Shown in pieces: positions 1,245 to 20,742 of a stretch of 64,000 nt of DNA (position 1 is its first letter; each line of letters opens with the position of its first letter). A program made the translations under genes and the position numbers. The stretch is from Pseudomonadota bacterium. Lineage in GTDB: Bacteria; Pseudomonadota; Gammaproteobacteria; Steroidobacterales; Steroidobacteraceae. The DNA lies in contig JAKBWB010000065.1 of the NCBI GenBank assembly GCA_021843755.1, positions 3,357-67,356 on the forward strand, written 5' to 3'. The notes below the pieces were generated by a model. The model was not told where the DNA came from. It worked only from the letters and a program-made list of their open reading frames with translations, and did no database searches.

Positions 1245-1366
1245 CCTCGGTGATTCCCCGCCCACGGGACTGGCGCGCTCACGGAACGCCGCCGAGGATC
1301 GACTGGTGCGCTCGGGCGGCTCTCCGCTCGGAAATAGGTCGCGATCCCGGTACAACAGATGCGCCT

Positions 1367-2959: not shown

Positions 2960-3119
2960 CGCTGCGCGACAGTTCGTACCAAAATCCGCAGTCGTGAGGG
3001 GGGCCTGCCGTGTTGCGCGGACGGTCTACCGCTCACCTGACGGTGGGGTAGGCATCATCAGCCCTGTGGCAGTTCGGGGAGGAATGCCATCTCCGTGCGG
3101 CAAATCGTACACTGCTGCC

Positions 3120-6527: not shown

Positions 6528-6806
6528 CGGCGCGCTTGCAGTGTGCGCCGCTACGCAGGGGTCATCAGCTCACGGGAGCGGTTGCAGGGAACCCCATCCC
6601 CGGAAGAAACACGCAACCAAGGTAGTCCAGGCGAATCCGCCGGTCAATTCCCCCCCCTCTGTCCGCCCATGCGTAGAGCCCCGATTGACGCCCTCGGGGC
6701 TCCTCATTACGATGATCGCAAGCCTATCGGGGATGGAGTCCCCCGCGAACGGTCTGCATACCTGATGACTCCTGCCACGTCGCGTTAGCGTACGGGGAGG
6801 AGTTTC

Positions 6807-8606
6807 GTGATGAGCAGTCCGAGCGTGCTGAATCCGGCACAAATTGAAAGTACTCCCGAGCCTCGGGTGGAGCTCGCGCAGTGCCTGAACGACGCGACGG
6901 GTCTCCAGGGAATCGATTCCGCGACCTGCGGATGGCTGCGGGAAAAGCTCTCGGAAGAGTTCTTCAACCTGGTCGCCGTGGGCCAATTCAAGCGCGGCAA
7001 GAGCACGATCATCAACGCGCTGCTCGGCGAGGCACTCCTGCCCGTTGGGGTCGTACCCCTGACATCTGTCGTCACCGTCATCCGCTCCGGGCCCCGGACC
7101 TCGGCGCGCGTAACGCTGCGTGACGGGCGGACACTCCCCATTGAGATCGACGCGCTGGCCGAATACGTCACCGAGCGCGGCAACCCCGGGAATGCCAAGT
7201 CGGTCGAACGCGTTGACATCGAGCATCCCTCCTCTTGGCTTGCCAACGGAGTGAGGCTGGTCGATACGCCCGGCATCGCCTCCATCTATGAACACAACAC
7301 GGACGAAACCCACAGGTTTCTCCCGCAAGCGGATGCCGTCCTGCTCATCGCTTCCGTCGACCAGCCCGTCAGCCGTGCGGAGCTCGACTTTCTGAGTGAT
7401 CTGCGCCGCTATGCCGGCAAGACTATCTGTCTGCTCAACAAGACGGACCACCTGCTTCCCGAGGAATTGCACGAGACCATGGCGTTCGCCGTCGGCGCCA
7501 TCCGCGACGCGCTGGGGCCGGATATTCCGGTATTTGCGGTCTCGGGGAAGCTGGCGCTGGAGGGCAGGCTCCGCGGCGAGGCGGAACTTCTCGAGCGCAG
7601 CGGATTCCCGGAGTTCGAGGGGATGCTGCGCCGCTTCATGGCGCGGGAAAAGACCGCCGCCTGGCTGCGGTCGATCGCCCGCAGCCTCGCGCGGCTGCTC
7701 GCCGAAAGACGCTTTGCGCTCGACCTCGAGTCGAAGGTGCTGGTCGAGCCGCTCGAGCGCATCGAGGCCAATCTTGCCCTGTTCCGCGAGGAGAAGGAAA
7801 AAGCCGAGCGGGCACGCCAGGACTACCGCGTATTGCTCGAAGCCGACGCCCGGGCGCTGCTCAAGGAGCACATCGAGCCCGGCCTCGAGGACTTCAAGCG
7901 GAGCGAACAAACCCGGATCTGCGCCGCTATCACCCGCTGGACGGTGGAGCTGCGGCAACTTCCCCCGCACAAGCTCCAGGCGGCGATCGAGGCGCGGATG
8001 ATCACCGCGATTCGAACCGCATACGAGGACTGGCTGGCGCAGCAGGACGTGGAACTGTCACGCGCCTTCCAGCGGCTGTGCGCCCGTTTCTGGGCGAGTC
8101 TGCAGCAGAGCGTCGATGAACTCTTGCGCCGATCGAGCGAGCTGTTCGCCCTGACTTTCGAGCGCACCGACACCGAGCCGCACTGGTCCACTGAGTCCGG
8201 GTTCTACTACAAATTCTGGTACGAACCGACGAGCCTGAGGATCCTCTCGACCTCCGTGGTGCTGATGCTGCCCCGTGTCCTTGCCGCGCCCCTCATCGCA
8301 GGCCGAGCCAAGACCGCTGCCGTGGAACGCGTTGAAGTACAGGCCGGCCGCATCCGCCACGACCTCGAAGAGCGGCTGAAAAAGAGCATCCGGGACGCTC
8401 AAAACCGGATGCTCGAACAGATCGCAGCCACGGTCGCCGGCATCGAAGCGGCGATCGAGAACGGCATCTCGATGCGTAGACTCAGCTCCGCGGAGGTGAG
8501 TGCGCGTAGCGGCGAAATCGAGGACACGCTGCAGAGGATCGCCGAGCTCTCCGGGTGCCTGACCCGAATCCTGTCTAATCTCTGGCCAGATGACGGGTCT
8601 CGTTGA
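6807..8606 (+). CDS. bacterial dynamin-like GTPase (BDLP/LeoA-type), copy 2
   Basis: 599-aa ORF. G1 is VGQFKRGKSTIINALLG. The G2 region is VVPLTSVVTVI. G3 is LVDTPGIASIYE. G4 is LLNKTDHL. The helical stalk contains one hydrophobic segment (LRILSTSVVLMLPRVLAAPLIAG) that could be a membrane paddle. GGAGGAG lies just upstream of the GTG-ATG at 6807/6810. Confidence 0.85.
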   Translation: MMSSPSVLNPAQIESTPEPRVELAQCLNDATGLQGIDSATCGWLREKLSEEFFNLVAVGQFKRGKSTIINALLGEALLPVGVVPLTSVVTVIRSGPRTSARVTLRDGRTLPIEIDALAEYVTERGNPGNAKSVERVDIEHPSSWLANGVRLVDTPGIASIYEHNTDETHRFLPQADAVLLIASVDQPVSRAELDFLSDLRRYAGKTICLLNKTDHLLPEELHETMAFAVGAIRDALGPDIPVFAVSGKLALEGRLRGEAELLERSGFPEFEGMLRRFMAREKTAAWLRSIARSLARLLAERRFALDLESKVLVEPLERIEANLALFREEKEKAERARQDYRVLLEADARALLKEHIEPGLEDFKRSEQTRICAAITRWTVELRQLPPHKLQAAIEARMITAIRTAYEDWLAQQDVELSRAFQRLCARFWASLQQSVDELLRRSSELFALTFERTDTEPHWSTESGFYYKFWYEPTSLRILSTSVVLMLPRVLAAPLIAGRAKTAAVERVEVQAGRIRHDLEERLKKSIRDAQNRMLEQIAATVAGIEAAIENGISMRRLSSAEVSARSGEIEDTLQRIAELSGCLTRILSNLWPDDGSR

Positions 8607-9189
8607 TACCAATGACCCTGGCGTCATGCCCATGCACCCGCGCCTCGTTGATGGCACACGGCTCTTGCGAAAGCCGCCAGTAGGCGGATATCGGCTGGTC
8701 GAGCAACTGCAGCAGTATCGCCCGCATACCGCTATCGTGTCCCACGATCACGATGGTGTCCGCGGGATGGCGCTCGACGACCATCCGCACGACATCGGCG
8801 GTGCGCGCGATGAGATCCTGCAGCGCCTCCCCTTCGGGAAACCGCACCAGGTGCGGCGCTCTCAACCACCGCTCGAAGAGCTCCGGCCACTCGGTACGGA
8901 TCTCGCTGTGCAGACGCCACGTCCAGGTGCCGTAATCGAAATCGTTGAGCTCCTCGGATACGGCCGTCTCGATCCCGCAAGCCCTGGCGATCTCCCTCGC
9001 GGTCTGAACACAGCGCTTAAGCGGACTCGTGTAGAGGATCGCCGGGCGCCAGCGCGAAGCGATGCACCGCGCCGTCGCCTCCGCCTGACGGCGTCCCTCA
9101 TCGGTCAAAGGCACATCCCTTCTGCCCCGGAAGCGCTCCGGTTGAATTCCCTCGACATGGCCGTGACGCACGAGGACCAGGTGACTCAT
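8575..9189 (-). CDS. histidine phosphatase family protein (phosphoglycerate mutase-like)
   Basis: MSHLVLVRHGHVEG...RFRGRRDVPLTDEGRRQAEA carries the RHG catalytic motif, and VIVGHDSG carries the second His motif. ATG at 9189 is preceded by GGAGAA. The track ORF extends to 9240. Confidence 0.8.
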   Translation of the reverse strand: MSHLVLVRHGHVEGIQPERFRGRRDVPLTDEGRRQAEATARCIASRWRPAILYTSPLKRCVQTAREIARACGIETAVSEELNDFDYGTWTWRLHSEIRTEWPELFERWLRAPHLVRFPEGEALQDLIARTADVVRMVVERHPADTIVIVGHDSGMRAILLQLLDQPISAYWRLSQEPCAINEARVHGHDARVIGINETRHLARD

Positions 9190-9790
9190 CGCGATTCTCC
9201 AGGTTGCGGGCAAGGTACGGAGGGCGGCGGCCGCCGTCAATTACCCGAGCCGGCTATCGCAGAGGACAGACGCCCATGATGCGCGAGATTTCCGCCCAAC
9301 TGCGCCAGTATGAGCAAGACAAGTTCGAGCTGGCCGAGATCCTGCGCGCCATCCTGGTCGCGGTCTTACATGCAGCGATACGCGCTGAAGCGCGATGGAA
9401 TACGACGCGCCCTCGTGACCGACGAGGAAGCGCGCGCGGCGCAGCGCGCGCTCGCGCTCCTTGCTGGGATGCCGAATGTCCCGTGCCACAACTGAGATGG
9501 AATGCCAAAAGTTACCATATCCACGCTGCGGCGCGATCGCATCCGCCAATCTTGCCCCCGCGCGGACCATTTGCTAGGATCCCGCGCCGGGAGATGGCAT
9601 CCTCCCCGAACCGCCGCAAGGCTGATGACGCCTACCGCACTCGTCGGATGGAGACGGGTGGGGCGGGTGACACAGCACACCACGCCATCCTCTACCCGCA
9701 ACGACGGCCGACGAGCTGCACCCTCTTCTGATCCGGAGGTGGCGGTGATGTCAACAGGATTCCCCCGCGTCCTCGCATCCCCTGGCTGAA

Positions 9791-10750
9791 GTGTCGGCCA
9801 TGCTGCTTCGCATCCTGGCCAATGCGTTGCAGGTGCTGGTGGTGCTGCTGCTCTCACCGCTCGTGGCGGGGGTGCTGGACCGCCTGAAGGAAATCATCCA
9901 GTCGAAACGCGGCCCCAGCGTCTTGCAGCCATATCGCGACTTGTGGAAGCTGTTCCACAAGGATGAGGTCCTTTCCGATCGCAGCTCCTGGCTGTTCCGA
10001 GCCACACCCTACGTCGTGTTCGTCACGCCGATCTTCGTGACGCTGCTCATTCCCGTACTGACCAACTATCCGCTGTTCCTGGCCTTCATGGCGGACATGG
10101 TTGGCGTGGGATTCGTGCTGGCGCTCGGCGGGTTCTTCGCCACCCTGGGCGCGGTCGACACGGGCAACCCCTACGGCCCGATGGGCGCCAGCCGCACGCG
10201 AATGGTGGCGTTCCTCGCCGAGCCGGTGTTCGTCATCGTCTTTTTCACCGTCTCGTTCGTAGCCGGCTCCACCATTCCCTATATCGTGCAGGCCCACTGG
10301 GCGCTCTCTGCGGCAATCTTCCTGTCGCCGACGCACGTGCTGCTGATGGCGGCGTTCTTCCTGCTCATCCTGGCCGAGGGCGGACGGATCCCGGTCGACA
10401 GCCCCACGGGCCATGTCGAGCTGGCGATGATCGATGAGTCGAAGAGCCTCGAGTACTCCGGCACCGGTGCGGCGCTCATGAAATGGGGCGGGTACATGAA
10501 GTTGCTCGTGCTCATGTGCGTGTTCCTGAACGTGCTGGTCACACCCTGGGGCCTGGCGAGCGGCCAGACACTGTCCGCGGTGGCGCTGGCCATTCCCTTC
10601 GTGGCGCTGAAGGTGCTGATACTCATTCTCGCTCTCGTGGTGGTGGAGTCCTCGCTGGCAAAGCTGCGACTGTTCCGCATCAGCGAGTTCCTGGGAGCCG
10701 CCTTCGTCACCTGCGTGGCGGCGATGATCACGCAGCTGTTCAAGGTGTAA
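9791..10750 (+). CDS. HyfC/HycD-like (NuoH-family) membrane subunit of a group-4-hydrogenase-related complex
   Basis: 319-aa polytopic protein. The N-terminus LLLSPLVAGVLDRLKEIIQSKRGPSVLQPYRDLWKLFHKDEV is typical of formate hydrogenlyase subunit 4 / NuoH-like proteins. First gene of a tightly packed operon. Confidence 0.8.
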   Translation: MSAMLLRILANALQVLVVLLLSPLVAGVLDRLKEIIQSKRGPSVLQPYRDLWKLFHKDEVLSDRSSWLFRATPYVVFVTPIFVTLLIPVLTNYPLFLAFMADMVGVGFVLALGGFFATLGAVDTGNPYGPMGASRTRMVAFLAEPVFVIVFFTVSFVAGSTIPYIVQAHWALSAAIFLSPTHVLLMAAFFLLILAEGGRIPVDSPTGHVELAMIDESKSLEYSGTGAALMKWGGYMKLLVLMCVFLNVLVTPWGLASGQTLSAVALAIPFVALKVLILILALVVVESSLAKLRLFRISEFLGAAFVTCVAAMITQLFKV

Positions 10751-10762
10751 GGATCAATCACG

Positions 10763-11515
10763 ATGAGCGCCACCACCGTGACGAGCACCCTCGCCTCCCT
10801 GAACTCGCTGGTAGGAGGACTGTTCCTGCTCACGGCGTTCGCGATGGTCGCAACCCGGCAGACCCGTGGCTGCCTCCAACTGTTCATCGCGCAATCGCTC
10901 TTGCTCGCCGCCTCGGCCTTCCTCCTTGGTGCCGAGTACCACACCCCGCACCTCTACGGCGTCGGAATCGTCGATCTGATCAGCAAGCCCATCCTCGTCC
11001 CCTGGATTCTGAACCGCACGCTGACGAGGGAGGTTTACGCCAAGCGGGAAATCGACCAGGTATTGAACATCCCGACGTCCCTGCTGATCGCGTTGGCGTT
11101 CGCGGTGTTCGCCTACTTCCTGACGCGGCCGCTCCTCGATGCGGTGGCGCCGCAATTTCGCGGCGCCAATGTGCCGATAGGGTTCGCCGCTTTACTGCTC
11201 GGCGCCTACACTCTTGCGGTGCGCCGTGAAGCCGTGCCGATGTTGCTCGGGATCCTGGCCATGGAGAATGGCGCATTCTTCGTCGGCATCCTGCTCGCGC
11301 GCGACCTGCCGTTCATTATCGAGCTCGCCGTCGCCTCTGACGGACTCATCATGGTGTTCGTCGTCGGCATACTGGTACGGAAGATCCAGCACCGACTCGG
11401 CTCGACGCGGATCGGTGAGCTTGCGACGCTGAGAGAAGGTTCCGCCTCGCCCCCCTCGCCGCTTCCTCACGACGGCTCGATTGCGCCGGAGCGGCAAAAC
11501 CCGAAGGCCGTATGA
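10763..11515 (+). CDS. HyfE-like small membrane subunit (NuoK-related)
   Basis: 250-aa hydrophobic protein in the HyfE position between the HyfC-like and HyfF-like genes. Its stop overlaps the next start (ATGA at 11512-11515). Confidence 0.65.
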   Translation: MSATTVTSTLASLNSLVGGLFLLTAFAMVATRQTRGCLQLFIAQSLLLAASAFLLGAEYHTPHLYGVGIVDLISKPILVPWILNRTLTREVYAKREIDQVLNIPTSLLIALAFAVFAYFLTRPLLDAVAPQFRGANVPIGFAALLLGAYTLAVRREAVPMLLGILAMENGAFFVGILLARDLPFIIELAVASDGLIMVFVVGILVRKIQHRLGSTRIGELATLREGSASPPSPLPHDGSIAPERQNPKAV

Positions 11516-13017
11516 CGCTGCTCCTCATCCCGGGCCTGCCCCTGCTTGCGGCTCTTCTGTCCGGCGCCGCAATGTTGAGACCAAAGCGGCCCCGCGCACG
11601 CGCGAGCGAGCGGGTCCTCGCCGGGATGACCATCGTCAGCTCGGTGCTCGTACTGCTGCTCGCCTCCAAGATGGCCTGGCGAGTCGCCGCCGGCGCGACA
11701 TTCACCGCGCTTTCCGGATGGGTGTCGGTGGATGCGCTCGGCGCCCTGATCATCCTGCTGATCGCCCTCGTGGGCACCACTTCGGCCATCTATTCGTGGG
11801 GATACATGGCGCGCTCCTACACCGAGCCGGGGAGGCTGCGGCTCTACTACGCGAACTACAATCTGTTCATCTTCTCGATGCTGGCGATTCCGATGGTGAA
11901 TGAGCCGACGCTGGTATGGATCTTCGTCGAGCTGACCACGGTGTCGTCCGCGTTGCTGGTGAGCTTCGAGAACACCGAGGCGGCGCTCGAGGCGGCTTGG
12001 AAGTACGTCGCATTATCGCTCATGGGCGCGGGGATCGCGCTCCTCGGATTTCTGCTGCTGTTCTCCACGCTGCAGGCGGCCGGCGGCGAGAGTTATACGT
12101 GGCAAGGATTGCAGCACGTGGCGGCCCGGATGCCGCCCGCACTTCTCACCACGTCGTTCGTGTTGATTCTGGTCGGACTCGGAACCAAGGTGGGGTTCGT
12201 ACCGCTGCACACCTGGCTGCCGGACGCTCACAGCCAGGCGCCCTCGCCGGTGTGCGCACTGCTCTCGGGAATCGAGACCACGAGCGTGCTGTACGTGATC
12301 CTGCGGCTGCTGCCGATCGTGGATTCCGCCTCCACCCCGGGGATGCGGCGGTGGGTGATCGGATTCGGTCTGCTCTCGGCCGGTACGGCCGCGTTCCTGC
12401 TGCTGCAGGTCCGCGATTACAAGCGCCTCTTTGCTTTCTCGACAGTCGAGCACATGGGCATCATCCTCGTGGCCGCGGGGCTCGCCGGCGAGGCGGCTCA
12501 TTTTGCCGCGGTCTATCAGATCCTTGCCCACACGGTCACCAAGTCCTTCTGTTTCTTCGCCGCCGGCGCAGCGCTCCTCACGGTGAAGACCCGGGACATT
12601 TCTTCGGTCCGCGGACTGATTGGCGCCTCCCCAATCGCAGCCATCGCGCTGCTTCTCGGCGCTCTGGCCATCGCCGGGGCACCACCTCTGCCGCTGTTCA
12701 TGAGCGAGTTCGCCATTCTGCGCGCCGGTCTTGCCTCGGGCCGTTATCTCACCGTGGCGCTTCTGGCGCTGTTTATCGTGATTGCCTTCTTCGGGATTCT
12801 GCTGCACGTGAACCGCATGGTATTCGGCAGCCCGAAACCCGGGAATCACGAGCCCGCCACGCAGCCGGCGACCGCTCCTGCGGCCATCATGCCGCTACCC
12901 CACACCTGCATCGCCGTATTGATCGCCGGCGGTGCATTGATGATCGCGCTGGGCTTGGTTCTACCTTCACCACTGCGTGAGCTGTTGCGCCTCGCAGCAG
13001 CGGGCCTGCGGCGGTAG
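11512..13017 (+). CDS. HyfF-like antiporter-type subunit (NuoM/NuoN family)
   Basis: 501-aa polytopic protein with proton-pumping-subunit signatures: FVPLHTWLPDAHSQAPSPVCALLSG and FSTVEHMGIILVA. Confidence 0.8.
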   Translation: MTLLLIPGLPLLAALLSGAAMLRPKRPRARASERVLAGMTIVSSVLVLLLASKMAWRVAAGATFTALSGWVSVDALGALIILLIALVGTTSAIYSWGYMARSYTEPGRLRLYYANYNLFIFSMLAIPMVNEPTLVWIFVELTTVSSALLVSFENTEAALEAAWKYVALSLMGAGIALLGFLLLFSTLQAAGGESYTWQGLQHVAARMPPALLTTSFVLILVGLGTKVGFVPLHTWLPDAHSQAPSPVCALLSGIETTSVLYVILRLLPIVDSASTPGMRRWVIGFGLLSAGTAAFLLLQVRDYKRLFAFSTVEHMGIILVAAGLAGEAAHFAAVYQILAHTVTKSFCFFAAGAALLTVKTRDISSVRGLIGASPIAAIALLLGALAIAGAPPLPLFMSEFAILRAGLASGRYLTVALLALFIVIAFFGILLHVNRMVFGSPKPGNHEPATQPATAPAAIMPLPHTCIAVLIAGGALMIALGLVLPSPLRELLRLAAAGLRR

Positions 13018-13023
13018 ACCATC

Positions 13024-14646
13024 ATGGAAATCCCGGTGCAACGACACGCGCAGTGCAGTCGGCGGAGCCTGCACTTCGAGATCGACTGTCAGCCGCAGCG
13101 CCTGGTACAAGTGTGTAGTGCACTCTCCCGCGCGGGGTTTGGTTTCGCCGGCCTCATCGTCGAGGAGTGGCAGCGCCAATGGTGGCTGAGATACGCATTC
13201 CATTCCCTGAGCGGCAGCGGCGGGAAGATCCTGCGGCGCACCCTCGCAGAGCCGCCGGAACCAGCAGACTTCGCCCCGCTGTGCTCTTCCGCCGACTGGA
13301 TCGACGTGCTCATCCGACAGCCTCTGACGCGCACGAGCTATCCGAGTATCAGCAGCGAGGTGCTCGCCGCGGACTGGCACGAGCGCGAAGCGGAGGACCT
13401 CTTCGAGCTCACCTTCGAGGGCCATCCACGCCTCGGGGACTTCGTGCTGCATGATGTCGCCTGGCAGGAGGGGCTTGCGCCGATGCGCAAGGATTTCAAT
13501 GCGCACACCCCTCCGTCCGAGCGTCGGCCGAATCCGGCGTGGCGTCCGCAGCGCATCGTTCACGAACCAGGCTCTTTCCTGATGCCCATTGGACCGATCT
13601 ATGGCGGCGTCTCGGAGTCAGTGCACTTCACGCTGGAGACGGTGGGCGAAGACGTCATCCGGGCGCTGCCGCGTCTGTTCTACAAATACCGGGCGGTGGA
13701 GAAAATCGCCGAGGGTCGCGCTGCGCCAGACCTACTGTTGCTGGCGGAGCGTTTCAATGGCATCGCGGCCTTCGCCCACGGCCTGGCCTGCGCACAGGCC
13801 ATCGAAACCGTTGCCGGAGTCGAACCACCCGCCCGAGCGCTGACGCTGCGCGTCATGCTCGCGGAACTGGAGCGGCTCAGGCATCACACCGGAACGATCC
13901 ACGACATCTGCGAATCCACCGCACTCACCGTCGCGGCGAGCCAGGCGGCGATTCTTGAGGAGGAGCTGCTGCGGCTTTCGGGCTCGCTCACGGGGCACCG
14001 TTACCTCTTCGGCCTGCTCATGCCCGGTGGACTGAGCCGGGACTTCGAGCAGCACTCGTTGGCGGACGCGGTGCGAGCGGTCCAGGACATCGCGCGCCGG
14101 TTGACCCAACTGGAGCGGCACTTGGTCACGACCAGCAGCTTCCTCGACCGACTGGAAGAAGTCGGCATCGTGACGCCTGCCCTGGCGCGGACCTACGGAC
14201 TCGTGGGTCCCGTAGCACGTGCTTCCGGTCTTGCCTGCGATTTACGCCGTGCGCAACCTTACGCAGCGTACGACGCCTACACATTCGATATTCCGCAGGA
14301 ACAGGACGGCGACGGCTACGCGCGGCTGCGCGTGCTATTTGCCGAAGCCCGCCAGGCGAGCCGCATTCTCGGCCAGGCCGTCAATATGCTGCCGGACGGA
14401 CCCGTGTGCGTCGCCTGCCCCGACATTCCGCCGGGGGCCGCGCTCGGCTGGAGCGAGGCGCCCGTCGGCGCGACCTTTCACTGGATCCACGCGGATGAGC
14501 AAGGACGCGTGAGCCGCTACCACATCATGTCCCCCTCCTTCGCCAACTGGCACGGCTTTCACCTTGCGGCCGAGAAGTTCGCCTTCCAGGACTTTCCCAT
14601 CATCCTGGCAACCTTCGGACTGTCGGCGGCGGAGACAGATCGATGA
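13024..14646 (+). CDS. NuoC-NuoD / HycE-HyfG-like fused large subunit lacking all four [NiFe] cysteine ligands
   Basis: 540 aa. The N-terminal part is NuoC-like (AADWHEREAEDLFELTFEGHPRLGDF). The C-terminal part is large-subunit-like (GPIYGGVSESVHFTLETVGEDVIRALPRLFYKYRAVEKIAEG). Where RxCGxCxxxH is expected the DNA at 13747-13776 encodes ERFNGIAAFAH. Where DPCxxCxDR is expected the protein ends FGLSAAETDR. Confidence 0.85.
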   Translation: MEIPVQRHAQCSRRSLHFEIDCQPQRLVQVCSALSRAGFGFAGLIVEEWQRQWWLRYAFHSLSGSGGKILRRTLAEPPEPADFAPLCSSADWIDVLIRQPLTRTSYPSISSEVLAADWHEREAEDLFELTFEGHPRLGDFVLHDVAWQEGLAPMRKDFNAHTPPSERRPNPAWRPQRIVHEPGSFLMPIGPIYGGVSESVHFTLETVGEDVIRALPRLFYKYRAVEKIAEGRAAPDLLLLAERFNGIAAFAHGLACAQAIETVAGVEPPARALTLRVMLAELERLRHHTGTIHDICESTALTVAASQAAILEEELLRLSGSLTGHRYLFGLLMPGGLSRDFEQHSLADAVRAVQDIARRLTQLERHLVTTSSFLDRLEEVGIVTPALARTYGLVGPVARASGLACDLRRAQPYAAYDAYTFDIPQEQDGDGYARLRVLFAEARQASRILGQAVNMLPDGPVCVACPDIPPGAALGWSEAPVGATFHWIHADEQGRVSRYHIMSPSFANWHGFHLAAEKFAFQDFPIILATFGLSAAETDR

Positions 14647-15383
14647 CCCAATGGGTACTCGAGGGCCTGCGCGCCGGTATTCGCACGACACGCTACCCCT
14701 TTGCCCCCGAGACAGCTGCGGGTGTCAGCCCGGGTCTTCCCGCCGCCGGAGAGCTCGCCCGGCCCGACCTGGAACGGCTCATCGCGCGCTGCCCGACGGC
14801 CGCGCTTGCGAGCGCCGATGGACGGCTCGTAGTCGATGCGCGCCGCTGCGTGCATTGTTTCCGCTGCGTGCGGGGATCTGACACCCCGGCACCCTGGCAA
14901 GGCGGCTATGAGTGGGCAACCGGCGAGGGAACCTTGGGCAAGACGTTCACACGCTCGCTGCACATCAGGGTGGTCGATGCCGGAGATTGCGGGGCCTGCC
15001 TGCATGAGGTCAAGCAGCTCGCCGGTCCCTATTACAGTCTCCACCGCCTCGGCTTTTTCATCTCTCCCACTCCGCGTCAGGCGGATGTGCTGCTCGTCGT
15101 AGGCCCCGGCACCGACCAGATGCGCGAGGCGCTTACCAAGGCGTACAAGGCCATGCCGACTCCTCGCACCGTGATTGCGGTCGGCACCTGCGCGCTCTCG
15201 GGCGGCGTGTTCGGGTCCAACTTCGCGTGCGGCGGCGGCATTTCCTCGATCTTGCCCGTGGATGTGGAAGTGCCGGGTAATCCACCGCCTCCACTTGCCA
15301 TTCTGCACGCCCTGCTGCTCGCCACCGGCCGCGCCGCCCCAGCTGCGAAGGAGCGGCAGACTGCAGGAGAGCGAATGCCATGA
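14643..15383 (+). CDS. NuoB/HycG/HyfI-like small subunit with an N-terminal single-cluster ferredoxin remnant
   Basis: 246 aa. The NuoB core is VVDAGDCGACLHEV...ADVLLVVGPGT...VIAVGTCALSGG...LPVDVEVPGNPPPP. The fourth cluster cysteine (PGCPP) is Asn, encoded by aat at about 15279-15281. The N-terminus carries CPTAA...(17 aa)...CVHCFRC. ATGA overlaps occur at both ends. Confidence 0.8.
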   Translation: MTQWVLEGLRAGIRTTRYPFAPETAAGVSPGLPAAGELARPDLERLIARCPTAALASADGRLVVDARRCVHCFRCVRGSDTPAPWQGGYEWATGEGTLGKTFTRSLHIRVVDAGDCGACLHEVKQLAGPYYSLHRLGFFISPTPRQADVLLVVGPGTDQMREALTKAYKAMPTPRTVIAVGTCALSGGVFGSNFACGGGISSILPVDVEVPGNPPPPLAILHALLLATGRAAPAAKERQTAGERMP

Positions 15384-17518
15384 TCGCAATGGCCTGGACC
15401 GGCGCATTCTTTGCGCTCTGCGCGCTGGGCATGCTCCTCGCACCGTTCGTCCCGCAACGACGCAACCCCCTCCTGGTTGCCATCGCGGGCGCCCTGGCCT
15501 CAGCGTGCCTTTGTGTAGCGGGTGCGTATGCCCTGCTGTCCGGCCGCACTGTCGACACGACCCTCGGCCTCTCGCCCCTGGGCAGCACGATACGCTTCAG
15601 CCTCGATCCCCTGTCAGGGGTGTTCGTGCTCATCACGGGGATCGTGTTTCTCGCCACTTCGGTGTTCTCAGCAGGCTACCTGCAACGCTACCTGGACCAC
15701 TACAGTCTGAAGGTGTTCACCGTTCTGTATTTCGGGCTGCTGGCCGCCATCGCGGCGGTGCTTCTGGCAAGCGACGTCCTCTCATTCCTCGTCGCCTGGG
15801 AGCTGATGTCGATCGGCTGCTACCTGCTCGTCAATTTCGAGCATCGGCGCGACGAGAACATCCGCGCCGGCTACCTCATGCTCGCCATGGGCGAGGCGGG
15901 AACCCTGGCCGCGGCGGTGGCGTTGCTCCTCCTGGCCAACGCGGCCGGCTCGCTCGGGTTCGAGGCGATCCGCATGAACGGCACCCGGCTCGCCGACGGC
16001 CTGCGCTGGACGGTGTTCGTGCTGTCGGTGGCGGGCTTCGGGGTGAAAGCCGGTCTGGTGCCAGTCAACTCCTGGCTCCCTCGCGCCCACCCGGCCGCAC
16101 CGGCCAATGTCTCCGCGCTCCTCTCCGGAGTGATCCTCAACCTCGGTATTTACGGCATTGTGCGCGTCAACCTCGACCTCGTGCCGCCTCGCCTGGCCGG
16201 ACCCGGCATCGTCCTGCTGCTGGTAGGAGCCATCTCGGCGTTCCTCGGCATTCTCTACGCCGTCACCGCCAACGATATGAAAACTCTGCTCGCGCACAGC
16301 TCCATCGAAAACATGGGCATCGCGACGACGGCTCTCGGGGCGGGCGTGGTCTTTGCGACCACCGGTCATCAAGCACTCGCCGCCATCGCCCTCGTCGCAG
16401 CGTTCTACCAGCTTGCCAATCATTCGGTCTACAAGGCGCTTCTCTTCTTCGGCGCCGGGACGGTGGACGCCTACGCCGGCACGCGGGACCTCGATCACCT
16501 GGGAGGTCTCATCCACCGAATGCCGTGGACAGCCCTGTTCTTCCTCATCGGTTCGCTCTCGATCGCTGCCATCTACCCTTTCAGCGGCTTCAGCAGCGAG
16601 TGGCTGACGCTGCAGGCGCTGCTGCGCAGCGCCGAGCTCTCATCGAACCTCGTCAAGACCGCCTTCGCCTTTGCCGGCGTAGCGCTGGCGCTCACCGCGG
16701 CACTGGCCGTCACCTGTTTCGTCAAGGCATTCGCAATGGGGTTCCTCGGCATGCCCCGCTCCCCGGCGGCAGAGGAAGCGCGCGAGGCGCCTCGCTCGAT
16801 GCTCGCACCGATGGGCGCGCTGGCCGCGCTGTGCGTTCTGCTCGGCATTCTGCCGACATTCGTGATTCCCGCCCTCGGCGGGGCGCTCAAATCCGTAGGG
16901 GGCGCGAGCGCCGCGCACACCCTGGTTCCGCCTTTCTTCAGCCACGGCCGGCCATCGGCCTTACCTGCGAAGTTCATCGCCGATTTCCACGATCTCGGCG
17001 CACAAGTGGGTCAGGATATCGTCCCCGGGCGCGGCCTGGTGGTGCTGCATCGCGGCGGTGCGGACAATCCCGTCGTCTTTGCCATGGCGACTTCCTATGG
17101 CTTCGTCGTCCTGATATTGCTCCTGGGGGGTACGGCCTTCGTCGTCAGGCGACTGACCGCAGCTCGTCGCGTCATGCGTGAGGAGCAGTGGGACGGCGGG
17201 GTGCACCAACTCTTACCCGAGATGACCTACACGGCGACTGGATTCTCGAACCCGGTGCGCGTGATCTTCGACGCGATCCTGCGGCCCCGCACCGTCGAGG
17301 ACACGCAGGAAACCGTGGCACAGCATTTCCGCGTGGCCATCGTCCGCACGCGCGAGCACCCGCACCTGGTCGATCGGCTCGTGCTCGATGTGCTCACGGC
17401 CTGGATGGCGGGCGCCGCCGGTCTCCTGGCACGCATGCACCACGGCAAGCTCAACGCCTATGTGGCCTACGTGCTCGGCACGTTGGTGCTCTTCCTGGGG
17501 ATTGCCGCGCTGAGATGA
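15380..17518 (+). CDS. HyfB-like antiporter-type subunit (NuoL family)
   Basis: 712-aa polytopic protein. Signatures are VPVNSWLPRAHPAAPANVSALLSGVILNLGIYG and LAHSSIENMGI. Last gene of the operon. Confidence 0.8.
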   Translation: MIAMAWTGAFFALCALGMLLAPFVPQRRNPLLVAIAGALASACLCVAGAYALLSGRTVDTTLGLSPLGSTIRFSLDPLSGVFVLITGIVFLATSVFSAGYLQRYLDHYSLKVFTVLYFGLLAAIAAVLLASDVLSFLVAWELMSIGCYLLVNFEHRRDENIRAGYLMLAMGEAGTLAAAVALLLLANAAGSLGFEAIRMNGTRLADGLRWTVFVLSVAGFGVKAGLVPVNSWLPRAHPAAPANVSALLSGVILNLGIYGIVRVNLDLVPPRLAGPGIVLLLVGAISAFLGILYAVTANDMKTLLAHSSIENMGIATTALGAGVVFATTGHQALAAIALVAAFYQLANHSVYKALLFFGAGTVDAYAGTRDLDHLGGLIHRMPWTALFFLIGSLSIAAIYPFSGFSSEWLTLQALLRSAELSSNLVKTAFAFAGVALALTAALAVTCFVKAFAMGFLGMPRSPAAEEAREAPRSMLAPMGALAALCVLLGILPTFVIPALGGALKSVGGASAAHTLVPPFFSHGRPSALPAKFIADFHDLGAQVGQDIVPGRGLVVLHRGGADNPVVFAMATSYGFVVLILLLGGTAFVVRRLTAARRVMREEQWDGGVHQLLPEMTYTATGFSNPVRVIFDAILRPRTVEDTQETVAQHFRVAIVRTREHPHLVDRLVLDVLTAWMAGAAGLLARMHHGKLNAYVAYVLGTLVLFLGIAALR

Positions 17519-17651
17519 CTCGTCGCACAACGGGAATGCGGAGAATTTCTAATGCTGTACGTGACCCTGAATCGCTTAGGAGCCGGAAACGAATAACAGC
17601 ATCACCTTCTACGACCGAAATCCTTGAAAAAGCTCAACGTGTGCACATGAC

Positions 17652-17927
17652 ATGGTACTGTTATTTATTAACGCCGCCTTAGGCCAGAGCGGCAAAACTA
17701 CCCTGGCCAGGTACCTCCTCGTTCCCCGTCTCACGGGGGCACTGATGTTCTCCGCAGAATCCAGCACGGCGGACTGCTCACCAATCGCCTCCATCAGCTC
17801 GAACCCTCATGCCTGCCGCCGTCGCCAAGCCCTGCGACCGACGACACGCCGTTCTACGGCTCAGCGACACCCGAGCTGCCGTCATCGCCGGCGATGCGAC
17901 GTCGCTCGCGCACAATCGGCCTCTTGA
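17652..17927 (+). pseudogene. relic of a plasmid/ICE-type P-loop protein (StbB/ParA-like N-terminus only)
   Basis: Sits in a visibly AT-richer stretch (17520-18007). MVLLFINAALGQSGKTTLARYLLVPRLTGALMFSAES resembles, from memory, the N-terminal P-loop of small plasmid stability ATPases. The rest of the ORF is Arg/Cys-rich nonsense. Family assignment is tentative. Confidence 0.3.
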
Positions 17928-18007
17928 CCCCAAAAATTGCGCGGATTTACGTCCCCACCAACAGCAGCCTTGGTCGACGTTCAACTGATTGTTTTTTATG
18001 ATTTTGT

Positions 18008-18052
18008 TGGTGGAAGGGAGGGACTCGAACCCTCGACCCCGGCATTACGAGC
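18008..18052 (-). repeat. partial tRNA-Met copy (3' half, CCA end to anticodon): distal att-like repeat
   Basis: tggtggaagggagggactcgaaccctcgaccccggcattacgag matches the 3' half of the tRNA at 20666-20742. It differs by one missing a and one t-to-c change. The flank just outside it (tcaactgattg...gatttt) also resembles the flank of the intact tRNA (tcaacttattgatttt). Confidence 0.8.
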
Positions 18053-18215
18053 TGGCTGCTCCTCTCAAGACTATCTTAACATTCAATAACTTGCCAAGGG
18101 GCGCCCGTTACGGTTGGCACGACGAAGCACAACCGAGCACGACTGATTCTGCAGAATTCCCGCGCGCCAGCTTGTGGGTCCTGGCTAGCCGCCGAAAGCT
18201 CGCCCGCCGATCTTC

Positions 18216-18244
18216 TTGACCCATCGTATCCATTCGGATACAGT
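18216..18244 (+). promoter_or_regulatory. candidate sigma70-type promoter overlapping a palindromic operator, upstream of the toxin-antitoxin pair
   Basis: TTGACC (18216-18221), a 17-nt spacer, then TACAGT (18239-18244). The perfect inverted repeat GTATCC-attc-GGATAC (18226-18241) lies inside the spacer and -10. The first candidate start codon (GTG 18251) is only 7 nt after the -10. Confidence 0.3.
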
Positions 18245-18250
18245 GCCGCA

Positions 18251-18544
18251 GTGCGGTACCTCGTGAAGCAGACCGTAGGATTCTCAGCCTGGCACATCGG
18301 GCTGCGAGACCTGCGCGCCAAGGTCGCGATTGCCCGCCGGATCGAGCAGGCCGAGAACGGCAACCTGGGCAAGACCCGCTCCGCCGGCAGCGGTGTTTCC
18401 GAGATGAAAATCGATCTCGGCCCTGGATACAGAGTCTATTTCACCGTCCGCGGCCGAGAGGTCATTGTCCTCCTCGCCGGTGGAGATAAATCCTCTCAAA
18501 CGGCTGATATCCGACGAGCCCATGCGCTCGCCAAAAAGGTCTGA
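18251..18544 (+). CDS. type II toxin, RelE/ParE superfamily (addiction module killer protein type)
   Basis: 97 aa. FSAWHIGLRDLRAKVAIARRIEQAENGNLGKTRSAGSGVSEMKIDLGPGYRVYFTVRGREVIVLLAGGDKSSQTADIRRA matches the conserved pattern of this toxin family as I recall it. The antitoxin gene follows 3 bp downstream. Confidence 0.8.
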   Translation: MRYLVKQTVGFSAWHIGLRDLRAKVAIARRIEQAENGNLGKTRSAGSGVSEMKIDLGPGYRVYFTVRGREVIVLLAGGDKSSQTADIRRAHALAKKV

Positions 18545-18547
18545 CTT

Positions 18548-18850
18548 ATGCGCAAGCATCTATCCAAACACGAGAAGCTGATCCCATTCGACATCGCGAC
18601 GATTCTTGATAGCGACGAGGCCATCGCCGAATACCTTTCGCAGGTGATCGAAGACGGTGACAGCAAGGAGTTCATCCGTGCCCTCGGCAACATCGCAAAA
18701 GCCCGAGGCATGACGGAAATTGCGGAGAAGAGCGGGCTGGGCAGGGAGAGTCTTTACAAGGCACTCCGACCCGACGCCTCTCCCCGCTTCGACACCATCC
18801 GCCGGGTATGCTTGGCGCTTGGGGTGAAGCTGCGCGCCGTGGCGGCCTGA
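18548..18850 (+). CDS. type II antitoxin, HTH (HigA-like addiction module antidote protein)
   Basis: 100 aa. The HTH core is ALGNIAKARGMTEIAEKSGLGRESLYKALRPDASPRFDTIRRVCLALGVKL. This is the toxin-first gene order typical of HigBA-like modules. Confidence 0.8.
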   Translation: MRKHLSKHEKLIPFDIATILDSDEAIAEYLSQVIEDGDSKEFIRALGNIAKARGMTEIAEKSGLGRESLYKALRPDASPRFDTIRRVCLALGVKLRAVAA

Positions 18851-18932
18851 CTTCGGGGCGGACTGTCTACGGACTCCTGCGACGCGCGAGCCCCTTGCGT
18901 GGCCAGGGACCGCCCACATGCCACTGAATAGC

Positions 18933-18976
18933 TGGTGGAAGGGAGAGACTCGAACCCTCGACCCCGGCATTATGAG
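18933..18976 (-). repeat. partial tRNA-Met copy (3' half): internal att-like repeat
   Basis: tggtggaagggagagactcgaaccctcgaccccggcattatgag. It lacks the same single a as the 18008 copy relative to the intact tRNA. It also has one g-to-a change. Confidence 0.8.
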
Positions 18977-19115
18977 GCTCGAGGGCGGCGTTTCGGAGGA
19001 GCGTCGCCGATGTGAAGCGAGCGCCAGAAGCAGAGACGGCCAATATCGCGCTCGTGACCGGAAAATCCGTGGGGCGGAAGGCGACCGTTCAGCTAGTCGG
19101 TCAGACAAGAGCCGA

Positions 19116-19843
19116 TCACCGCTTCGCGACGATCTGCACCAGACCTCTGGGACCGGAACTGCGTAGCACGTCGAGGCCGGATTGCTCGAGCACGCGCACG
19201 AGGGTATCGGGCGCAAGCCGCAGTTTCCGATAGTGACTTACGCGTGTCTTCCATATTTCGCCCTGCCGCTCGTGCACGACATCATGCACGAGCATGCATT
19301 CCGGCTCTCCAAAAAGCAGGTGTGAATGCGATCCGCAGCGGCGCGCACAGGAATAAATCGCGCATCCCCCTGCGCAGGGCGTGTGTAGTCCCGGAAGGTC
19401 GTCACGAAGCGGCCGCCCGGCGCCAGAGAATCCGCAACGCGGGAGCAGAGATGCTCGATATCGTCAACGCTCGAAAGGTGCGTCAGCGTGTCTCCCATGC
19501 AGAATATCCACTCTGGACGAACGTCAGGCCACTCGGCAAAAGCGAAAGCGAGCAAGTCCGATCCAACCGTGCGAATATTCAGGCCTTCGCCAAGGTGGCG
19601 CAGCTGCGAGAGAAGCTCTGCCGAAAAGTCGATGGCCGTCACGGCATATCCAAGACGGGCCAGCGGAATCGCATGCATGCCGAACCCAGCACCAAAATCG
19701 AGCGCGTGCGCGCCGTTTGAAGGCGGGACCTTCAAGGCCGAAAGTTCTGCAGCGCCTTGGCTGAAAGCGACCTGGGGTCCGCCGACCATCCATAAATAGA
19801 TCGGCGCCAGCAACTGGGAATAGTGGTCGGATACGGTACCCAT
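19116..19843 (-). pseudogene. class I SAM-dependent methyltransferase interrupted by a frameshift near 19305-19316
   Basis: ORF 19238..19843 carries the SAM-binding motif ALDFGAGFGMHAIPLARLGYAVTAIDFS but ends in an implausible tail (ESRNACSCMMSCTSGRAKYGRHA). Shifting frame at the A5/T5 run (19311-19315) gives GEPECMLVHDVVHERQGEIWKTRVSHYRKLRLAPDTLVRVLEQSGLDVLRSSGPRGLVQIVAKR, ending at stop 19118-19116. That is a typical methyltransferase C-terminus. Confidence 0.7.
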
Positions 19844-19874
19844 TCAGGAGGTATTACGATTCGACGACCGTCCT

Positions 19875-20231
19875 TCACAGGACGAGTTGCGTAACTCGAA
19901 TGCGACCAGGCTCCATGACGACGAAGCGGCTGTACAGGGCATCAGCGCGCTCGGCGAGCAGCTTCACGACAGCATCGGTGAGGGTCGATCGAGCCGATGC
20001 AGGATAGCGGATGAGGATGATACCCGAGTTGTTCTTGGTGGCAGCAAAAACGAGCTGCCCGAAGTCCTTGTCCTCGGTGAGCAGCAATCGACGCTCGGAT
20101 GCTGCAAGCTCGATGACTTTCTCGTCCTCGACGCCGTGCATCCGTTCCGCGATCGAGACGACATCGTGCCCGGCAACGCGTACGCCGACGACGACAGTGA
20201 AGTCGCAGCTCTCGTCGGCGAGTAGTCGCAT
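19875..20231 (-). CDS. DUF5615-type PIN-like putative toxin
   Basis: 118 aa. MRLLADESCDF...GHDVVSI...DEKVIELAASERRLLLTEDKDFGQLVF fits the DUF5615 pattern (LLxDE ... T.DkDFg). It lies directly downstream of a DUF433 gene. Confidence 0.7.
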   Translation of the reverse strand: MRLLADESCDFTVVVGVRVAGHDVVSIAERMHGVEDEKVIELAASERRLLLTEDKDFGQLVFAATKNNSGIILIRYPASARSTLTDAVVKLLAERADALYSRFVVMEPGRIRVTQLVL

Positions 20232-20250
20232 GATCTGCGGCTGAGTCGTC

Positions 20251-20481
20251 TCAGCCAGCGGCAGTCAGGACTTCTTCGTGAGCAAGCGAATCGGCAGCAT
20301 AGCGAAGCGCCGCCTGGAGGTCGGCCGTCGTCAGCCTGGGATACGCCTGCAGCAGCATCTTTTCGTCCGCCCCCTCGGCGAGCTTGCGGACGATCAGCTC
20401 GATCGGAATCCGCGTGCCGCGGATCACCGCTTTGCCCAACATGATCTTGGGATTGATCTCGACTCGGTCGTGGACAGTCAT
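20251..20481 (-). CDS. DUF433-type putative antitoxin
   Basis: Internal ATG at 20481 gives a 76-aa protein. MTVHDRVEINPKIMLGKAVIRGTRIPIELIVRKLAEGADEKMLLQAYPRLTTADLQAALRYA matches the DUF433 pattern as I recall it. The track ORF extends to 20616. Confidence 0.7.
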   Translation of the reverse strand: MTVHDRVEINPKIMLGKAVIRGTRIPIELIVRKLAEGADEKMLLQAYPRLTTADLQAALRYAADSLAHEEVLTAAG

Positions 20482-20665
20482 CGTCGATTCCTTCCTGCCA
20501 GAACCCGGTAAGCGCCTCGACGAGGCGCCCTGCCCATACGGTAGCACTCCGACGGCCGGAGAGCACTTCCGCTCGGATCGCGCGTGCAACTCTCGACAGT
20601 TGCACTTACCACGCACTTACAACCGGATATGCTGGAATTTTGATCCACTCAACTTATTGATTTTA

Positions 20666-20742
20666 TGGTGGAAAGGGAGGGACTCGAACCCTCGACCCCG
20701 GCATTATGAGTGCCGTGCTCTAACCGGCTGAGCTACCTTTCC
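20666..20742 (-). tRNA. tRNA-Met (anticodon CAT), elongator-like; tRNA-Ile2 (lysidine) not excluded
   Basis: The reverse complement is GGAAAGGTAGCTCAGCCGGTTAGAGCACGGCACTCATAATGCCGGGGTCGAGGGTTCGAGTCCCTCCCTTTCCACCA. It folds as a cloverleaf: acceptor GGAAAGG/CCTTTCC, D stem GCTC/GAGC, anticodon stem CGGCA/TGCCG with loop CTCATAA, and T arm GAGGG-TTCGAGT-CCCTC. CCA is encoded. Confidence 0.9.

Follow-up and report, generated by a model that had tools for sequence, protein, structure and literature searches.

The stretch of DNA analysed here, in the following referred to as the window, comprises 64,000 nucleotides (nt) of contig JAKBWB010000065.1 (positions 3,357 to 67,356) from a gammaproteobacterium of the family Steroidobacteraceae (assembly GCA_021843755.1). 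Between positions 9791 and 17518 of the window, six intact and densely packed open reading frames (ORFs) on the + strand encode relatives of hydrogenase-4 and complex I subunits, which are discussed here as a complex of the energy-converting hydrogenase-related (Ehr) class and termed ehrH, ehrK, ehrN, ehrCD, ehrB, and ehrL. The operon is preceded by a fluoride riboswitch.

The first gene, ehrH (9791–10750), encodes a NuoH/HyfC/HycD-like membrane subunit of 319 amino acids (aa; PF00146, 4e-31). As judged from an alignment of orthologues, its probable start is the ATG at position 9800 and not the GTG at 9791; identity among 70 orthologues ranges between 70% and 84%. The product of ehrK (10763–11515; 250 aa) is HyfE-like with a NuoK-like C-terminal half; its Pfam match (PF00420) was weak (2e-4, under the cut-off), and the match to the NCBIfam model for the hydrogenase-4 membrane subunit HyfE (1e-23) also stayed under the curated cut-off of the model. 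Two antiporter-like subunits are encoded by ehrN (11512–13017; 501 aa; HyfF/NuoN-M type; PF00361, 4.5e-47) and, at the end of the operon, by ehrL (15380–17518; 712 aa; HyfB/NuoL type; PF00361, 3e-48), the latter featuring a conserved C-terminal extension. Located between them are ehrCD (13024–14646; 540 aa), representing a fused NuoC and NuoD/HyfG-like large subunit (PF00329, PF00346, and, weakly, PF00374, NiFeSe_Hases), and ehrB (14643–15383; 246 aa), in which a HyfH/HycF-derived ferredoxin domain (residues 1 to approximately 100) is fused to a NuoB/HyfI-like domain (PF01058, 4e-23).

Apart from ehrK, Pfam E-values ranged between 4e-23 and 3e-48, and the coding nature of all six ORFs is clear from the GC content at third codon positions (0.74–0.88). 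The best NCBIfam matches were HyfF models for ehrN (best 8.5e-98), NuoD/NuoCD for ehrCD, NuoB for ehrB, and HyfB for ehrL (6e-166). Since all scores remained below the NCBIfam equivalog cut-offs, the subunits are to be regarded as relatives, not as members, of the named hydrogenase-4 families. Three of the junctions are ATGA overlaps (11512, 14643, and 15380) and the remaining two are gaps of 12 nt and 6 nt, so that gene order, junctions, and coordinates agree exactly with those given in the initial annotation. The latter had also reported that the window contains no separate HycF/HyfH/NuoI gene, no formate dehydrogenase, no hyp/hycI genes, and no NuoEFG, which was confirmed by a gene survey of the 64 kb; FdhF, HycB/HyfA, and a complete 2x[4Fe-4S] HycF/HyfH/NuoI gene were likewise not found in this region. 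Related loci were obtained by a scan comprising one genome per species, which revealed relatives in 508 species, and the locus statistics given below refer to the best 80 loci. Formate dehydrogenase, HycB/HyfA, full-length HycF/HyfH, and hyp genes are not recurrent in these 80 loci either.

A fluoride riboswitch upstream of the operon

The neighbour families observed in the 80 loci (CrcB, DUF190, enolase, and others) prompted an Rfam scan of the window. A fluoride riboswitch aptamer (crcB motif, RF01734) was detected in the operon leader at positions 9581–9641, on the same (+) strand as the operon and 150 nt 5' of its first gene. The aptamer covers the full Rfam model (positions 1–64) with 52.1 bits (cut-off 34, E = 1.5e-11) and scores 61.1 bits with the purpose-built covariance model R1. 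This model was built on 50 candidate aptamers with a manually assigned structure and gave 126 matches in 1.43 Mb; an alignment of four aptamer sequences (A2) had been discarded because of its inconsistent P2 register, and the 50-sequence alignment was used instead. Since MAFFT mis-registers the P1 loops (8 versus 9 nt), R1 served as a detection tool and not as structural proof, and the Rfam matches are taken as the evidence. The pseudoknot strands co-vary among the four aptamers of the window (GGCA/GCC, GGAG/CTCC, and GGGG/CCCC), as judged by eye in the alignment.

A candidate sigma-70-type promoter (9552–9580, + strand), read by eye, directly precedes the aptamer. It consists of TTGCCC, a 17-nt spacer, and TAGGAT, agrees with the consensus at 8 of 12 positions, scores under the threshold of the promoter scan, and is put forward as a putative element only. 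The leader between aptamer and operon (9642–9790, + strand), representing the region of the expression platform, contains a long hairpin (CUCGUCGG...CCGACGAG) and a 13-codon upstream ORF that extends from the ATG at 9748 to the TGA at 9789, ends 1 nt short of the GTG at 9791, and is preceded by a strong Shine–Dalgarno-like GGAGGTG at 9736. Possibly, this upstream ORF takes part in an expression platform that acts at the level of translation. The predicted fold of the leader was not more stable than that of shuffled sequence (z = −1.07). The 3' end of the aptamer overlaps with or directly adjoins an intrinsic terminator in 15 related loci, corresponding to the classical layout of a fluoride ON-switch; no such terminator follows the aptamer in the window or in the other loci from Gamma- and Betaproteobacteria. 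The aptamers located directly 5' of ehrH in the latter (6572–6635 in locus L008, 6590–6653 in L011, 6580–6642 in L012, and similar ones) form a subtype without a recognisable terminator, the hallmark of which is an additional A-rich insert (e.g., CGCAAUAAUAAC) between P1 and the AACCGCC element.

Linkage of riboswitch and operon was evaluated for the 68 assessable loci, i.e., those in which the sequence extends across the start of ehrH into the region 5' of it. A same-strand riboswitch match was found within 450 nt 5' of ehrH in 59 of them, at a distance of 450–2000 nt in eight, and at 3.3 kb in one, leaving no locus without a match. In the eight loci featuring the intermediate distance, crcB and/or DUF190 genes intervene on the same strand, and the next gene downstream of the match is ehrH for 60 matches and crcB for 14. 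When eight weak-scoring matches were checked against the Rfam gathering threshold, six were upheld, while those of L066 and the proximal one of L067 fell below it. Genes recurring next to the operon encode CrcB (25 loci), enolase (24), and DUF190 proteins (23), in addition to dynamin-like, MutS_V, Usp, membrane H+-pyrophosphatase, chorismate mutase, AAA_16, and MFS proteins; in several loci, the enolase gene is located directly after ehrL. The recurrent neighbours are known fluoride-regulon families, and crcB and DUF190 are, to judge from their arrangement, predicted to be co-transcribed with the operon in some lineages. The operon is very likely a member of the fluoride regulon.

Large subunit, small subunit, and membrane arm

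In an alignment of the large subunit, the L1 motif reads ERFNGIAAFAH in EhrCD, as compared to DRVCGICGFAH in HycE and DRIEYLGGCVN in Escherichia coli NuoCD, and the L2 motif reads FGLSAAETDR, as compared to DPCYSCTDR and DFVMSDVDR, respectively. All four Ni-Fe Cys are missing in 81 orthologues, in which the L2 Cys positions are taken by the invariant Ser534 and Glu537 and the L1 ligand positions by small, variable residues. EhrCD ends with ETDR, that is, with a NuoD-like stop at DR; HycE and HyfG run 32 residues longer, this extension being the tail that is cleaved during maturation, by the endopeptidase HycI in the case of HycE. The absence of the tail alone is not decisive, because certain Cys-bearing relatives are likewise tail-less. 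An alternative ligand register, which the initial annotation had named as an objection to its own reading, was looked for in the Cys conservation of the 81 orthologues and rejected, since no other four-Cys set is conserved; C296, the sole invariant Cys of the D domain, also occurs in HycE and HyfG and does not occupy a ligand position. The claim that the catalytic subunit cannot bind Ni-Fe is upheld by the Cys-free L1 and L2 motifs and the lack of a tail, and the complex encoded by the operon is almost certainly not a [NiFe]-hydrogenase.

The residues lining the pocket of EhrCD (E198, H201, R243, H252, S534, E537, and D539) are 96–100% conserved in the 81 sequences, six of them being invariant. 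As deduced from alignments to Aquifex aeolicus NuoCD (7q5y_B) and E. coli NuoCD, T/S197 and A/G246 occupy the positions equivalent to His38 and Tyr87 of NuoD (Thermus thermophilus numbering), the ligands of the quinone head group in complex I. Since equivalents of these two residues are absent, a canonical quinone site in EhrCD is unsupported. The nearest solved chain is HycE (7z0s_E, 5.5e-62); further matches in the PDB were MbsL (6.8e-27), Nqo4, and MbhL.

Residues 1 to approximately 100 of the small subunit EhrB align to the N-termini of HyfH, HycF, and NuoI (RTTRYPFAP...VSPG) and to clostridial 2x[4Fe-4S] ferredoxins, and residues 44–78 gave weak matches to ferredoxin models of Pfam and NCBIfam. 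Four Cys are left in this domain, Cys50, followed by Pro, in the first motif and Cys69, Cys72, and Cys75 in the second one; Cys50, Cys69, and Cys75 are 100% conserved, and Cys72 is 93% conserved. In the ferredoxin fold, the equivalents of these four Cys ligate one single [4Fe-4S] cluster, and we infer that this site corresponds to N6b of complex I. In the NuoB part, for which HycG (7z0s_G, 2.5e-26) is the nearest solved chain, Cys116, Cys119, and Cys183 are 100% conserved, whereas the GCPP motif has retained its Cys in only 4 of 76 sequences, the others having mostly N (44), Q (13), H (11), or S (3) at this position. One ferredoxin-type [4Fe-4S] site and a three-Cys proximal site lead to a predicted Fe-S chain that is two sites long. 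The statement of the initial annotation that the operon lacks electron-input subunits is correct insofar as a separate HycF/HyfH/NuoI is missing, but it was too strong, because the fused HyfH/HycF-derived domain with its four conserved Cys provides an Fe-S input domain for one cluster. A ferredoxin–NuoB fusion also occurs in locus L087 (8773–9495; P0169), a Cys-bearing and presumably Ni-Fe-binding relative from a spore-forming Firmicute, and in the NiFe-less locus L091 (7984–8968; 42% identity) the two parts are encoded by separate genes, which indicates that the fusion and the loss of the Ni-Fe site were independent events.

Residues of the membrane arm were assigned to channel positions in EhrN, EhrL, and EhrK by motif and not by structure. 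Among 71 EhrN sequences, all retain K226, H340, K344, and E399, and 69 retain E140; for EhrL, E141, K223, H348, K352, and E407 occur in every one of 78 sequences. EhrK carries its two membrane Glu, E168 and E187, in all 71 sequences compared, and E196, R199, D203, E210, and E216 of EhrH are invariant or nearly so. Altogether, the canonical proton-channel residues, comprising the Glu of transmembrane helix 5, the Lys of helix 7, the His/Lys of helix 11, and the Glu of helix 12 in EhrN and EhrL, the two membrane Glu of EhrK, and the acidic residues clustered in EhrH, show 97–100% conservation, on the basis of which the membrane arm looks fully functional. According to the Pfam and NCBIfam matches, the operon encodes only NuoH-, NuoK/HyfE-, and NuoL/M/N-type membrane subunits in addition to the NuoB/C/D arm; MrpB, MrpE, MrpF, and MrpG are absent.

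Judged by sequence, the assignment to the Ehr class as defined in PMC6349859 and PMC10284858 holds, since the Ni-Fe Cys and the tail are absent and the core is homologous to group-4 [NiFe]-hydrogenases and complex I; a large subunit devoid of the Ni-Fe CxxC motifs, antiporter-like subunits, and the lack of an NADH module in the six-gene operon are further features shared with the class. By the same token, the traits of a group-4 [NiFe]-hydrogenase or formate hydrogen lyase (FHL) are missing, namely the four Cys of L1 and L2, the cleavable tail, the four-Cys proximal cluster, and the partner genes. The Ehr class was proposed from comparative genomics by Marreiros et al. (2013), as cited in passages of PMC6349859, PMC10284858, and PMC6728331, and in their treatment of the class these papers neither assign a function to it nor refer to fluoride. 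The view expressed in the initial annotation, that the complex is of the Ehr type and that this class has no biochemically assigned function, is borne out in the literature searched. Nitrospirota loci (L045, L048, L070, and L072) belong to the same operon family as that of the window, and EhrL sequences of comammox Nitrospira are reported in PMC10284858. The clade of the window is tied to the fluoride riboswitch; other Ehr lineages, such as the formate dehydrogenase-associated ones of Margulisbacteria and the 'FNLSYxGNDL' type (L092), are not known to be linked to fluoride.

Distribution of related operons and the fluoride-responsive island

The best 80 loci span at least eight phyla, with EhrCD identities to the protein of the window between 55% and 64%, and originate from Gammaproteobacteria, Burkholderiales, Verrucomicrobiota, Planctomycetota, Acidobacteriota, Nitrospirota, Desulfobacterota, Actinomycetes, and Gemmatimonadales. 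They stem from acidic environments (peat, bog, palsa, and mine drainage), and most of the genomes were assembled from peat, bog, palsa, or soil metagenomes; proteins of the organism represented by the window also occur in mine-drainage metagenomes. The gene order H-K-N-CD-B-L is identical in all 80 loci. In approximately 14 of them (L011, L012, L013, L015, L027, L028, L030, L032, L038, L043, L051, L053, L076, and L080), a gap of at least approximately 2.3 kb separates the B and L genes. The gap suggests that the HyfB-type (EhrL) gene is present twice in tandem, giving a seven-gene version of the operon; seven additional ORFs from such gaps that were compared are 52–58% identical to EhrL.

A wider HMMER library search yielded 603 cluster representatives at E ≤ 1e-30, and motifs were inspected in 108 full-length representatives, among which several NiFe-less lineages interleave with relatives that bear the Cys but no tail, as well as with HycE-type enzymes. 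In all four NiFe-less loci L088, L090, L091, and L094 (45%, 43%, 42%, and 38% identity), RF01734 was found at gathering score before the NuoH-like gene, with enolase, dynamin-like, Usp, CBS, and chorismate mutase genes among those located nearby. RF01734 was not found in L087, the one Cys-bearing relative examined, nor was a riboswitch present within the 338 nt of upstream sequence of L092 ('FNLSYSGNDR' type). In L088 (13277–15484), next to the ehr operon, a riboswitch leads a gene for a membrane H+-pyrophosphatase (PF03030), followed by enolase; the pyrophosphatase adds another type of proton pump to this regulon. L091 carries a HEARO RNA (RF02033, 108 bits; 13111–13334) 5' of an ORF with an RRXRR domain, a few kb from its ehr operon.

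Four RF01734 matches, all over the gathering score, are present in the window, three in addition to that of the operon and within 7 kb, which marks positions 1–17518 as a fluoride-responsive island. The initial annotation missed both the riboswitch leading the operon and this island. The second riboswitch (3042–3103, − strand; 51 bits) leads two tandem MutS2-like (MutS_V) genes (2959–1367 and approximately 1360 to beyond position 1), identified on the basis of Pfam and tblastn. A third riboswitch (6549–6610, − strand; 46.4 bits) leads a gene for a HEAT-repeat protein (6527–5136; Pfam), and the fourth (6720–6781, + strand; 38.6 bits) leads a dynamin-like GTPase gene (6807–8606; Pfam). Another dynamin-like GTPase gene is located at approximately 3100–5150 (+ strand); its longest ORF (2994–5150) overlaps the opposite-strand riboswitch at 3042–3103, and the true start probably lies further downstream. 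A His_Phos_1 (phosphoglycerate-mutase family) gene occupies 9240–8575 (− strand). The families found beside riboswitches in the window, such as MutS_V and dynamin-like proteins, recur next to ehr operons in other phyla.

The region 3' of the operon (17519–20742) contains two toxin–antitoxin-like pairs, one at 18251–18850 with an HI1420-type antidote and the other a DUF5615/DUF433 pair at 19875–20616, an S-adenosylmethionine-dependent methyltransferase gene, and a tRNA-Met gene (20666–20742, − strand), and its GC content drops to 0.605; it may represent the boundary of a horizontally acquired island. The remainder of the window carries housekeeping genes, namely lolB, prfA, prs, rplY, pth, ychF, metH, gatAB, mreBCD, lipAB, and lptD.

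Comparison with known systems and proposed function

Weinberg et al. (2010) described that the crcB motif precedes genes for FHL (PMC2864571), and in a 2024 review (PMC11139923), in a passage citing Baker et al. (2012), 'formate hydrogen lyase' is counted among the commonest genes associated with fluoride riboswitches. The review takes this annotation literally, as FHL and a shift to fermentation. The operon studied here resembles these cases in being a hyf/hyc-annotated operon directly 3' of a fluoride riboswitch; however, the literature reads FHL, whereas the sequences of the window family cannot be a hydrogenase or FHL. The 'formate hydrogen lyase' of the fluoride-riboswitch lists is very probably the non-hydrogenase gene family of the window. 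Literature linking the fluoride riboswitch to Ehr-, hydrogenase-, or complex-I-like complexes was not found, the study by Baker et al. (2012) being known to us second-hand via PMC11139923. As far as we have seen, the fluoride association and the Ehr class are each known, and what is new is the identity of the two and the conclusion that this 'FHL' is not a hydrogenase.

Among characterised systems, hydrogenase-4 of E. coli (Hyf, FHL-2) shares the six subunit types and the relative order hyfC, E, F, G, (H)I, and B, and its HyfH aligns with the EhrB N-terminus. In contrast to Hyf, the operon of the window lacks HyfA, HyfD, HyfJ, HyfR, FocB, the Ni-Fe ligands, and the cleaved tail, its HyfH counterpart is shortened to one cluster and fused to HyfI, and hyfB has been shifted to the operon end. 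The nearest solved relative is FHL-1 of E. coli (Hyc; PDB 7Z0S), represented by HycE and HycG, but FHL-1 comprises HycB, HycF, and FdhF, only one antiporter-like subunit, and both a Ni-Fe site and a proximal cluster with four Cys. Complex I (NDH-1) has in common the NuoB, C, D, H, K, and L/M/N homologues, the NuoD-like acidic-x-DR end, and the pump residues; unlike complex I, the operon lacks NuoEFG, NuoA, NuoJ, a complete NuoI, and the quinone ligands His38 and Tyr87, and it encodes only two antiporter-like subunits. A precedent is provided by Mbs/Mbx of Pyrococcus (PDB 6U8Y), a hydrogenase relative without Ni-Fe chemistry that uses another redox substrate and has retained ion pumping, although this 13-subunit archaeal complex is distant, carries an Mrp-type Na+ module, and has no link to fluoride.

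Fluoride enters the cell as hydrogen fluoride (HF), accumulates in the manner of a weak acid, and lowers cytoplasmic pH and proton-motive force, and its export via Fluc depends on membrane potential or proton-motive force (PMC11139923). We consider it probable that the operon encodes a fluoride-induced, nickel-free ion pump of the Ehr type, presumably redox-driven, which offsets HF-driven acidification and sustains fluoride export; that such a pump serves pH and proton-motive-force homeostasis is a slightly favoured reading of its role. At low external pH, HF would diffuse into the cell and dissociate, and F- would leave through Fluc/CrcB down the membrane potential, so that each cycle would import one proton and dissipate one charge. 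Rising cytoplasmic F- would turn on, via the riboswitch, a spare pump that is free of an NADH module. A soluble low-potential carrier (ferredoxin or flavodoxin) might donate electrons at the fused Fe-S domain of EhrB, from which they would pass via the proximal cluster to a pocket at the interface of EhrCD, EhrB, and EhrH, the acceptor probably being a quinone that is perhaps bound non-canonically. Ferredoxin-to-quinone chemistry in this sense is a tentative proposal that we regard as possible rather than likely. A conformational change would then push H+ out through EhrH/K, EhrN, and EhrL, and this would restore both the pH of the cytoplasm and the membrane potential needed for exporting fluoride.

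Several observations weigh against a redox-driven pump induced by fluoride. No gene for an electron-input or redox partner recurs beside the operon, as determined by clustering the ORFs in the flanks of the 80 loci. The pocket of EhrCD contains neither the Ni-Fe cysteines nor the complex-I quinone ligands His38 and Tyr87, and the lack of the fourth Cys in the proximal cluster leaves it uncertain that electrons are transferred. The AlphaFold2 model of EhrCD is of moderate quality (predicted local distance difference test score of 65, with values below 50 for the pocket loops and the C-terminus) and is unfit for cavity analysis. On the regulatory side, a terminator search of the leader revealed no intrinsic terminator or other clear expression platform after the aptamer of the window, and tblastn detected no crcB gene anywhere in the 64 kb.

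The main rival explanation is a redox-independent secondary transporter that performs Mrp-like Na+ or K+/H+ exchange under fluoride stress, its peripheral arm and clusters being structural or regulatory. The unusual pocket at the end of the electron path, the missing ligand of the proximal cluster, the lack of a conserved partner oxidoreductase near the 80 loci, and the wholly intact antiporter-like subunits would all fit such a transporter, and Na+/H+ antiporters form the second commonest class of fluoride-riboswitch genes (PMC11139923). On the other hand, conservation of the seven Fe-S Cys (93–100%) and of the pocket residues (96–100%) is hard to explain for a passive lid, and the Mrp-specific subunits MrpB, MrpE, MrpF, and MrpG are absent, so that we regard this explanation as unlikely. 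The complex might also handle fluoride itself, with F- or HF bound in the former Ni-Fe pocket or at the open site of the three-Cys cluster of a primary exporter or fluoride-coupled pump. The nearly obligate linkage to the riboswitch over a deep phylogenetic range, the replacement of the two C-terminal ligand positions by the invariant hard ligands Ser534 and Glu537, and the possibility that the three-Cys cluster is site-differentiated speak in favour of this idea. Yet crcB is often co-encoded, meaning that a dedicated exporter is already there; the equivalent of E537 is Asp in E. coli NuoCD and Glu in A. aeolicus NuoCD2, and the acidic residue is thus not specific for fluoride; and, there being no known precedent, we judge fluoride handling to be very improbable. 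The more general notion of a deep, multi-phylum Ehr clade that exists specifically for fluoride defence, in its strongest form with the remodelled site acting on F- or HF as a primary, energy-driven fluoride pump, is given little weight.

A respiratory oxidoreductase for a specific substrate, for which fluoride is a regulatory cue and pH defence not the purpose, for example as a replacement of a fluoride-sensitive step of energy metabolism, appears improbable as well. Enolase, pyrophosphatase, and phosphoglycerate-mutase-family genes of the regulon represent spare copies of fluoride-sensitive enzymes (PMC11139923), and an enolase gene right after ehrL in several loci would agree with such a role, but canonical complex I is not known to be fluoride-sensitive, the pump residues of the membrane arm are fully conserved, and the co-transcription predicted for crcB suggests coupling to transport. 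Finally, automatic annotation and the fluoride-riboswitch literature imply a genuine FHL or group-4 [NiFe]-hydrogenase: the terms used in the source annotations are 'Ni,Fe-hydrogenase III large subunit' as well as 'formate hydrogenlyase subunit 5', and the closest solved structure is that of E. coli FHL. This explanation deserves hardly any credence and was rejected on ligand, tail, and partner-gene evidence, since the 81 orthologues have neither the four Ni-Fe Cys nor a substitute four-Cys set, no C-terminal maturation peptide is encoded, HycB, complete HycF, FdhF, hyp, and hycI are missing from the window, and every bit score lies under the NCBIfam equivalog cut-off.

Ehr complexes are among the last complex-I relatives without a known physiology. 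The sequence data suggest that fluoride at acidic pH is an inducing condition for the class, one that is specific and simple to apply and by which Ehr function would become directly testable. Furthermore, the annotation-based inference of FHL and fermentation in the fluoride literature, where these genes have been listed since 2010–2012, is corrected. The predicted complex, with two Fe-S sites and two antiporter-like subunits, may offer a naturally minimal complex-I-like pump for mechanistic study, and the results suggest that, for bacteria living in acidic soil, peat, and mine water, keeping up the proton-motive force is a central element of resistance to fluoride.

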